A stretch of 64,000 bases of DNA from a virus: positions 1 through 64,000 of IMG/VR virus record IMGVR_UViG_3300017989_005036; one strand, given 5' to 3'. Below the pieces are notes generated by a model. It did no database searches. It had not been told where the DNA came from and saw nothing but the letters and a program-made list of their open reading frames with translations. Position 1 is the stretch's first letter; each line of letters opens with the position of its first letter. Shown here in pieces: positions 5,136 through 5,205 of the stretch. A program made the position numbers and the translations under genes.

Positions 5136-5205
5136 GGTGGTCCCTTCGGGGTGGACCGAACGAGAGGTTACCGGGTCAGGTCGGAAACGAAGCAGCCCAG
5201 CCTCT
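5136..5205 (+). ncRNA. ffs: small signal recognition particle (4.5S-like) RNA
   Basis: helix-8 motif GGGTCAGGTCG-GAAA-CGAAGCAGCCC (E. coli has GGUCAGGUCCGGAAGGAAGCAGCC), closed by AGAGGTT/AGCCTCT. Confidence 0.8.

Follow-up and report, generated by a model that had tools for sequence, protein, structure and literature searches.

A candidate miniature SRP RNA encoded between serine tRNA genes of a large uncultured phage

Why would a phage carry a piece of signal recognition particle (SRP) RNA between two of its tRNA genes, and would such a piece serve or hamper the SRP of the host? All cells have SRP RNA, which for bacteria is regarded as essential, and both GTPase activation and the hand-over of cargo are believed to depend on its distal end. 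The question is raised by a window of 64,000 nucleotides, the whole stretch of DNA analysed here, which belongs to an IMG/VR record of 75,420 nt. CheckV gives this record a completeness of 15%; by that measure it is a piece of a phage of about 0.5 Mb. The public runs with DNA of the phage are seawater and sediment metagenomes, and no RNA run is among them.

The first 8.3 kb of the window form a tRNA island (916-8225). The genes that ARAGORN found in it are all of four kinds, Tyr, Phe, Leu and Ser, and include four anticodons for Ser and five for Leu. On the plus strand of this island, three genes for tRNA-Ser stand in a row. The first, tRNA-Ser(UGA) at 4949-5032, was missed by ARAGORN and recognized by the Rfam tRNA clan (31.7 bits, anticodon loop UUUGAAC). 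The preliminary description had placed a miniature SRP RNA between two serine tRNA genes, and these are the second and the third: tRNA-Ser(CGA) at 5044-5133 (ARAGORN; Rfam 42.5 bits), which abuts the element, and tRNA-Ser(GGA) at 5213-5298 (ARAGORN; Rfam tRNA 26.5 bits), which follows directly 3′ of it. The element is miniature, as had been claimed, though its size needs revision. It extends past 5136-5205, the core measures 46 nt instead of 43 nt, and the unit between the tRNAs measures 79-80 nt instead of about 70 nt.

Performing MFE and centroid folding, we find that the 79 nt between the Ser(CGA) and Ser(GGA) genes form two hairpins, both on the plus strand. The first one, at 5138-5158, is a capped hairpin with a stem of about 8 bp, one bulge and a UUCG-type loop, in agreement with the separate hairpin seen earlier beside the core. 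A linker of 3 nt leads to the second, the 46-nt helix-8 (domain IV) mini-domain of SRP RNA at 5162-5207, which is assigned by RF00169, the model R1 described below, covariation and tip identity. Its 8-bp closing stem (5162-5169 with 5199-5206) is followed by the asymmetric loop ACC on the 5′ side (5170-5172), which has 0-1 nt opposite and aligns to 'AAc' of the model, and by the inner stem GGGU/GCCC (5173-5176 with 5195-5198). Beyond these lie the symmetric loop CAGG/AGCA (5177-5180 with 5191-5194), where every position equals the consensus in cmscan, and the tip stem UCG/CGA (5181-5183 with 5188-5190), which closes the GAAA tetraloop (5184-5187). This tetraloop of the GNRA type appears in the RF00169 alignment as well as in the fold. 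The ACC loop, the symmetric loop and the tetraloop had all been read from the letters alone, and the RF00169 alignment agrees with that reading. A 3′ tail, UAUUAC (5207-5212), ends the unit, and its unpaired part AUUAC (5208-5212) precedes tRNA-Ser(GGA).

The long distal helix had been described as missing, and we confirm this. In the folds, pairing ends after the 8-bp closing stem, and helix 5 with its GTPase-docking site is absent. We considered a hidden distal helix and rejected it; the 5′ flank makes a hairpin of its own and has no pairing with downstream sequence, and the 3′ flank is 6 nt long before the tRNA begins. In six further copies with two hairpins, five of them from protein-level relatives, the 5′ flank likewise forms its own hairpin. 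A degenerate tRNA at 5134-5212 was also discarded, as neither ARAGORN nor Rfam calls a tRNA there. The fold energy is unexceptional against shuffles (z of -0.8 to -1.15), so the support for the element comes from homology and covariation, not from thermodynamics. Among the differences listed for a strain variant (X6, a 49-kb contig of about 97% identity), one falls inside 5134-5212; there the 5′ hairpin has gained 1 nt after 5141. We do not count this comparison as evidence of conservation.

We then compared the element with RNA family models. At gathering thresholds, the Rfam scan reported only tRNAs. A permissive Rfam scan of 601 nt returned RF00169 (Bacteria_small_SRP) with 33.7 bits and an E-value of 2.5e-5, or 7.5e-7 per record. 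The bacterial small SRP model, proposed earlier as a check, thus speaks for the element by its E-values, while the 33.7 bits stay below the curated gathering score of 40 bits. The match is local, covering model positions 23-68 of 97 with all conserved loop bases matching, and the score falls short since the element corresponds to no more than the tip of the model. Related phage copies exceed 40 bits with the same model (L014, 41.4; L017, 41.9; L116, 43.2; L143, 43.6). A covariance model, R1, built from the copies L017, L007 and L009 only, finds 5162-5206 of the window end to end with 43.9 bits and an E-value of 2e-9. The window has a single match to the 24-nt core pattern, whereas 100 shuffles gave no match even when one mismatch was allowed. 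Blastn with the element as query gave no match in E. coli genomes, since no exact run common to both reaches the word size; we therefore compare the element with E. coli 4.5S RNA by way of the Rfam model, not by aligning the two sequences.

These data show that the element derives from domain IV of SRP RNA, and the retained motifs suggest that it may also work like domain IV. It shares with the bacterial small SRP RNA (4.5S, ffs, RF00169) the symmetric loop, the GNRA tetraloop, the ACC loop on the 5′ side and the short flanking stems. In contrast to that RNA, which is about 95-115 nt long, it comprises only about 46 nt, lacks helix 5, has a separate 5′ capped hairpin, is encoded by a phage in a tRNA array and has no ffh partner. 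The evidence supports a miniature SRP RNA in which a helix-8 core is accompanied by a separate capped hairpin, without the distal helix. It departs from RF00169 in three family criteria, as its score stays under the curated threshold, the distal helix is missing and no partner gene was found in its genome record; for this reason, we do not file it as an ordinary member of that family. As the Rfam threshold misses miniature SRP elements, they go unannotated in phage genomes.

Structure is conserved in the relatives. We aligned 12 phage-borne copies and found standard pairs in 98.7% of cells, with both sides changed in 11 of the 13 pairs. The covariation score was 1.016, compared with 0.21 in shuffles. 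When the partner was slid by 1-3 columns as a control, pairing fell to 24-48%. The closing stems differ wholly by lineage (GAGAGGUU, CACCGC, GCCGCC, GGUCGG, GGGGAUC, GUAAGG and CUCUCG). The search pattern required G.AA and CAGG/AGCA, and the invariance of these bases within the collected set is by construction. The relatives keep the element through compensating mutations, and this is selection on structure.

To find such copies, we scanned 2.9 million viral contigs with the core motif, which gave 59 loci, and with a looser motif, which gave more than 100. For the most part, these loci are ffs genes of the host that lie at the ends of prophages. Set apart from them are short hairpins of the SRP-tip type, which occur in large phage contigs and in most cases within tRNA arrays. 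Besides the window, the copies in tRNA arrays are L014 (158 kb), arranged as Ser-[hairpin+SRP]-Phe; L017 (90 kb), within a Ser/Tyr/Phe array; L039 (46 kb), with tRNA-Glu on one side and tRNA-Arg on the other; L036 (203 kb, 96% complete), L059 (107 kb, listed together with the 73-kb L037) and L116 (350 kb, complete with terminal repeats), each within a tRNA array; and L050 (7 kb), which like L042 (17 kb) reads promoter-SRP-tRNA-Gln. L007 (66 kb) and L009 (94 kb) are free-standing and have their own terminators. Three pattern matches, L019, L058 and L105, formed no helix and were dropped as chance matches.

Proteins of the window show 31-59% identity to those of L014, L017, L007, L009 and L039, which are thus distant relatives of the window phage; CheckV estimates the phages of the L014 and L017 records at about 0.5 Mb too. 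Despite this level of protein identity, the five keep the two-hairpin layout of the window. A hairpin immediately 5′ of the SRP helix, with a linker of 0-4 nt, is present in the window, in these five copies and in L143. Its sequences are unrelated among copies, and its caps are UUCG, GCAA and others. The unrelated phages L116, L059 and L050 are without it. We read the 5′ hairpin as a structural or stabilising module or as a coaxial extension. The L036 and L059 copies have no asymmetric loop at all.

Two of these loci have features of their own. L143 carries a two-hairpin miniature SRP element at 598-680 (plus strand), whose 26-nt tip equals that of the window and which ends in U7. It is a 3.3-kb contig binned in a 'Gemmatimonadaceae' MAG, with 18 tRNA genes on one strand and the SRP element on the opposite one. 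It is probably a mis-binned phage fragment whose element has its own terminator. At L050 (5175-5389, minus strand), the array with the miniature SRP element also has two tRNAs with the anticodon CUA, called 'Pyl' by ARAGORN. These are amber suppressors and suggest a phage that reads TAG as sense.

Full-length SRP RNAs were found as well. Three large phage contigs, L069 (497 kb), L087 (372 kb) and L092 (290 kb), carry RNAs of 93-96 nt that match the whole RF00169 model with 57-59 bits, next to tRNA genes (L069:8566-8658, L087:520-612 and L092:1923-2018). Like the window element, they are phage-borne, single-copy and located by tRNA arrays in the absence of an Ffh gene. They differ in keeping the distal helix, and the window element stands at the reduced end of this series. 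Scanning five phage records with RF00169, four of them 94-100% complete, we found exactly one SRP-like gene, miniature or full length, in each of the five.

We next looked for the cellular counterpart. The exact 26-nt tip was found in 31 of 185,579 species genomes. The carriers include 28 Planctomycetota or Verrucomicrobiota (Fuerstiella, Planctomycetaceae, Tepidisphaerales and Phycisphaerales in the former; Akkermansiaceae and Verrucomicrobiaceae in the latter), one alphaproteobacterium and one that is L143. All 29 of the 29 carriers outside tRNA arrays fold as a long SRP-type hairpin. In these cells, the tip belongs to a long hairpin, of about 95-115 nt, with about 30 more pairs than the phage element. 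Five cellular copies were scored with Rfam and gave 43.7-69.8 bits over the full model. The identity of the tip to marine PVC SRP RNAs is a hint, drawn from sequence, to the possible host of this uncultured marine phage of about 0.5 Mb, and the seawater and sediment runs fit marine PVC hosts. We also tried EF-Tu as a host marker and dropped it; the window EF-Tu has 59-64% identity to the tested Phycisphaerales, Akkermansiaceae and one alphaproteobacterium, which is too even to discriminate.

No ffh gene had been noticed in the window, and none is present in the whole 75-kb record (PF02978; no true PF00448 match). The Ffh M domain (PF02978) was found in none of ten phage records with SRP-like genes, including the window's own and four that are 94-100% complete. 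The SRP54 GTPase model (PF00448), used on five of the ten, gave weak P-loop matches only. As the phages have no Ffh, any protein partner of the RNA must be that of the host. Action on host Ffh as a replacement or a decoy, and release through processing of the flanking tRNAs, had been suggested in the preliminary description, and our findings are compatible with both.

The neighbouring genes belong largely to translation. A complete EF-Tu gene lies within the tRNA island (1395-2612, plus strand; Pfam GTP_EFTU, D2 and D3, E 7e-56). Further downstream, at 15463-15704 (plus strand), RF00010 matches a reduced RNase P class A-like RNA with 67.4 bits and an E-value of 2.5e-20; this is below the gathering score of 100, with 242 nt aligned to a model of 367 positions. 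The RNA is a possible phage-supplied processing ribozyme for the tRNA array.

How might the element be expressed? We found no promoter or terminator match in 5030-5300, and the gaps to the flanking tRNAs are 0-6 nt, with 0 nt after Ser(CGA) and the tail ending at Ser(GGA). From this we infer that the miniature SRP RNA would be co-transcribed with the tightly packed tRNA-Ser genes. The tRNA-Ser(CGA) gene encodes no CCA (its 3′ end reads ...CUCUUCC-G-CUA); since the tRNAs lack an encoded CCA, the 5′ end of the element would be made when an enzyme such as RNase Z processes the 3′ end of this tRNA behind the discriminator. The 3′ end would be made by an RNase P cut at the 5′ end of tRNA-Ser(GGA), predicted at 5212/5213. 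The released product would be about 80 nt long, a capped 5′ hairpin followed by the 46-nt helix-8 hairpin.

Phage T4 offers a comparison here, as its tRNA cluster contains two stable non-tRNA RNAs, rnaC and rnaD (species 1 and 2), released by the tRNA-processing machinery. To our knowledge, they have no assigned family or function. The window element likewise lies between tRNA genes of the same strand with no promoter or terminator of its own, and the likeness is one of context. Unlike rnaC and rnaD, it has a clear cellular homologue.

Once released, the RNA would present in its helix-8 loops (CAGG/AGCA and ACC) the motifs that cellular SRP RNAs show to the Ffh M domain. Since the phage has no Ffh, it would load onto the Ffh of the host and form a hybrid SRP. 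In the early targeting complex, the NG domain of the SRP receptor binds the SRP RNA tetraloop (PMC4737761, PMC5454536, PMC4091067 and bioRxiv 10.1101/378745, on the roles of the tetraloop and the distal site). The GNRA tetraloop of the phage RNA may serve as such an FtsY tether, so that docking of the receptor would be supported. Without the distal docking helix, the hybrid particle would still be expected to assemble with the receptor, but its GTP hydrolysis and its recycling would differ from those of the host particle. The putative role is that of the phage's own stripped-down SRP RNA, which would provide Ffh with RNA throughout infection, beside the tRNAs, EF-Tu and the RNase P-like RNA. 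We give this whole reading, in which a conserved gene of the phage encodes a miniature SRP RNA that is processed with the tRNAs, loads host Ffh and, as we prefer to see it, acts as the phage's own SRP RNA, a probability of roughly 55%.

A wider statement follows the same lines. Several unrelated lineages of large phages would each carry one SRP RNA and no Ffh, many of them having cut the RNA to its 45-nt tip, probably more than once, and these RNAs would load host Ffh and reprogramme co-translational membrane targeting. We regard this statement as evenly poised. The upkeep of the element in relatives by compensating mutations points to large phages either disturbing or aiding the way in which the host delivers proteins to its membrane. 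The SRP pathway would join the translation-linked host systems for which huge phages bring parts, namely tRNAs, EF-Tu, tmRNA and RNase P-like RNA. If true, SRP targeting is a previously unrecognised point of viral take-over and the element is a natural experiment on the minimal SRP RNA: a tip-only SRP RNA under selection would test in vivo which functions of SRP RNA are dispensable, or which ones can jam the pathway. In the full-text literature that is searchable without a journal subscription, we found no description of a phage- or virus-encoded SRP RNA.

The same Ffh binding could also have the opposite effect. As a decoy, or dominant-negative RNA, the element would trap host Ffh in particles without distal GTPase docking and slow the biogenesis of host membrane proteins, for example against envelope-based defences or competing host synthesis. 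The missing distal docking helix is in line with this. According to bioRxiv 10.1101/378745, shortening the E. coli distal stem by more than 14 bp attenuates the GTPase and abolishes cargo transport (Ataide et al. 2011, cited there), and SRP RNA variants thought to hold SRP inactive lower the viability of E. coli. As cargo transport is lost on distal shortening in E. coli, a tip-only RNA may be a poor substitute for the host RNA. A high copy number, which would suit a decoy, would be expected from expression in a tRNA array. Against it, the full-length SRP RNAs of the other huge phages, in the same tRNA context and in single copy, fit supply better, and the neighbours of the element (tRNAs, EF-Tu and the RNase P-like RNA) are supportive of translation. 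Because of these two points, we lean towards replacement or supply among the readings in which Ffh is bound, and we consider a decoy rather unlikely, though it is the best of the alternatives.

Less probable still is an SRP-derived hairpin that has no role with Ffh and acts as a processing or stability module, as a terminator, or as a structure that imitates the 23S GTPase-associated centre and would address EF-G or uL11. The L143 helix, directly followed by U7, would serve as an intrinsic terminator. The element contains GAAGCAGCC and the L036 copy reads GAAGCAGCCAUCAUC; we take both to resemble a strand of 23S H43, GAAGCAGCC being presumably common to the 23S GTPase-associated centre and 4.5S RNA. 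However, a terminator or spacer needs neither the CAGG/AGCA loops nor an identity of 26/26 to host SRP tips, and the window copy has no U-run after its helix. The permissive Rfam scan of the region reported no match to an LSU rRNA model. A separate search for a mimic of the uL11 site near the tRNA-Tyr genes found none.

A further explanation, which we hold to be very improbable, is an attP-type remnant, that is, a piece of host ffs kept by a phage integrating into that gene. The ffs gene is the attachment site of a prophage, Enterococcus phage phiEf11 (PMC12540744), and such sites account for most of the SRP-motif matches in viral contigs; a link between phage and ffs sequence is thus common to both cases, and the 26-nt tip of the element is identical to that of PVC ffs genes. 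However, the identity ends at the tip, both flanks being unlike the host and pairing with each other, and the relatives keep this pairing by compensatory changes that an att core would not require. An att site would also normally reach the 3′ end of the gene. The att-site cases are host genes at prophage borders, whereas the window has a self-pairing miniature hairpin that covaries among relatives deep inside the tRNA array of a phage of about 0.5 Mb. Finally, chance resemblance in a GC-rich inter-tRNA spacer, for which the Rfam score below the gathering threshold and the unremarkable fold z could be cited, is effectively refuted by the R1 match and the covariation, along with E-values of 1e-5 to 1e-9, the absence of the motif from all 100 shuffles and its recurrence in relatives.

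We made some further observations on the window. A blastn search of cultured phage genomes with the locus matched only generic tRNA-Ser genes and no relatives. At 10832-11332 (plus strand) lies a 'putative phage metallopeptidase' (PF18894). L007 and L009 have homologues of it close to their SRP elements, at 55-59% identity. Using it as a query for related loci, we obtained none with the single protein and, with an alignment, no contigs beyond the two that were known already. The gene at 8685-9365 (plus strand) encodes a protein with a phosphoribosyltransferase domain. Near the start of the tRNA island, after two ordinary tRNA-Tyr genes, there is a long and near-perfect hairpin at 1113-1167 (CAGACAACCAAAAAAGG...CCUUUUUUGGUUGUCU). 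It stands 5′ of a tRNA-like gene at 1169-1312 (plus strand), which is of the Tyr type with the anticodon GUA, scores 36.4 bits and has an insert of about 65 nt in its D-loop.
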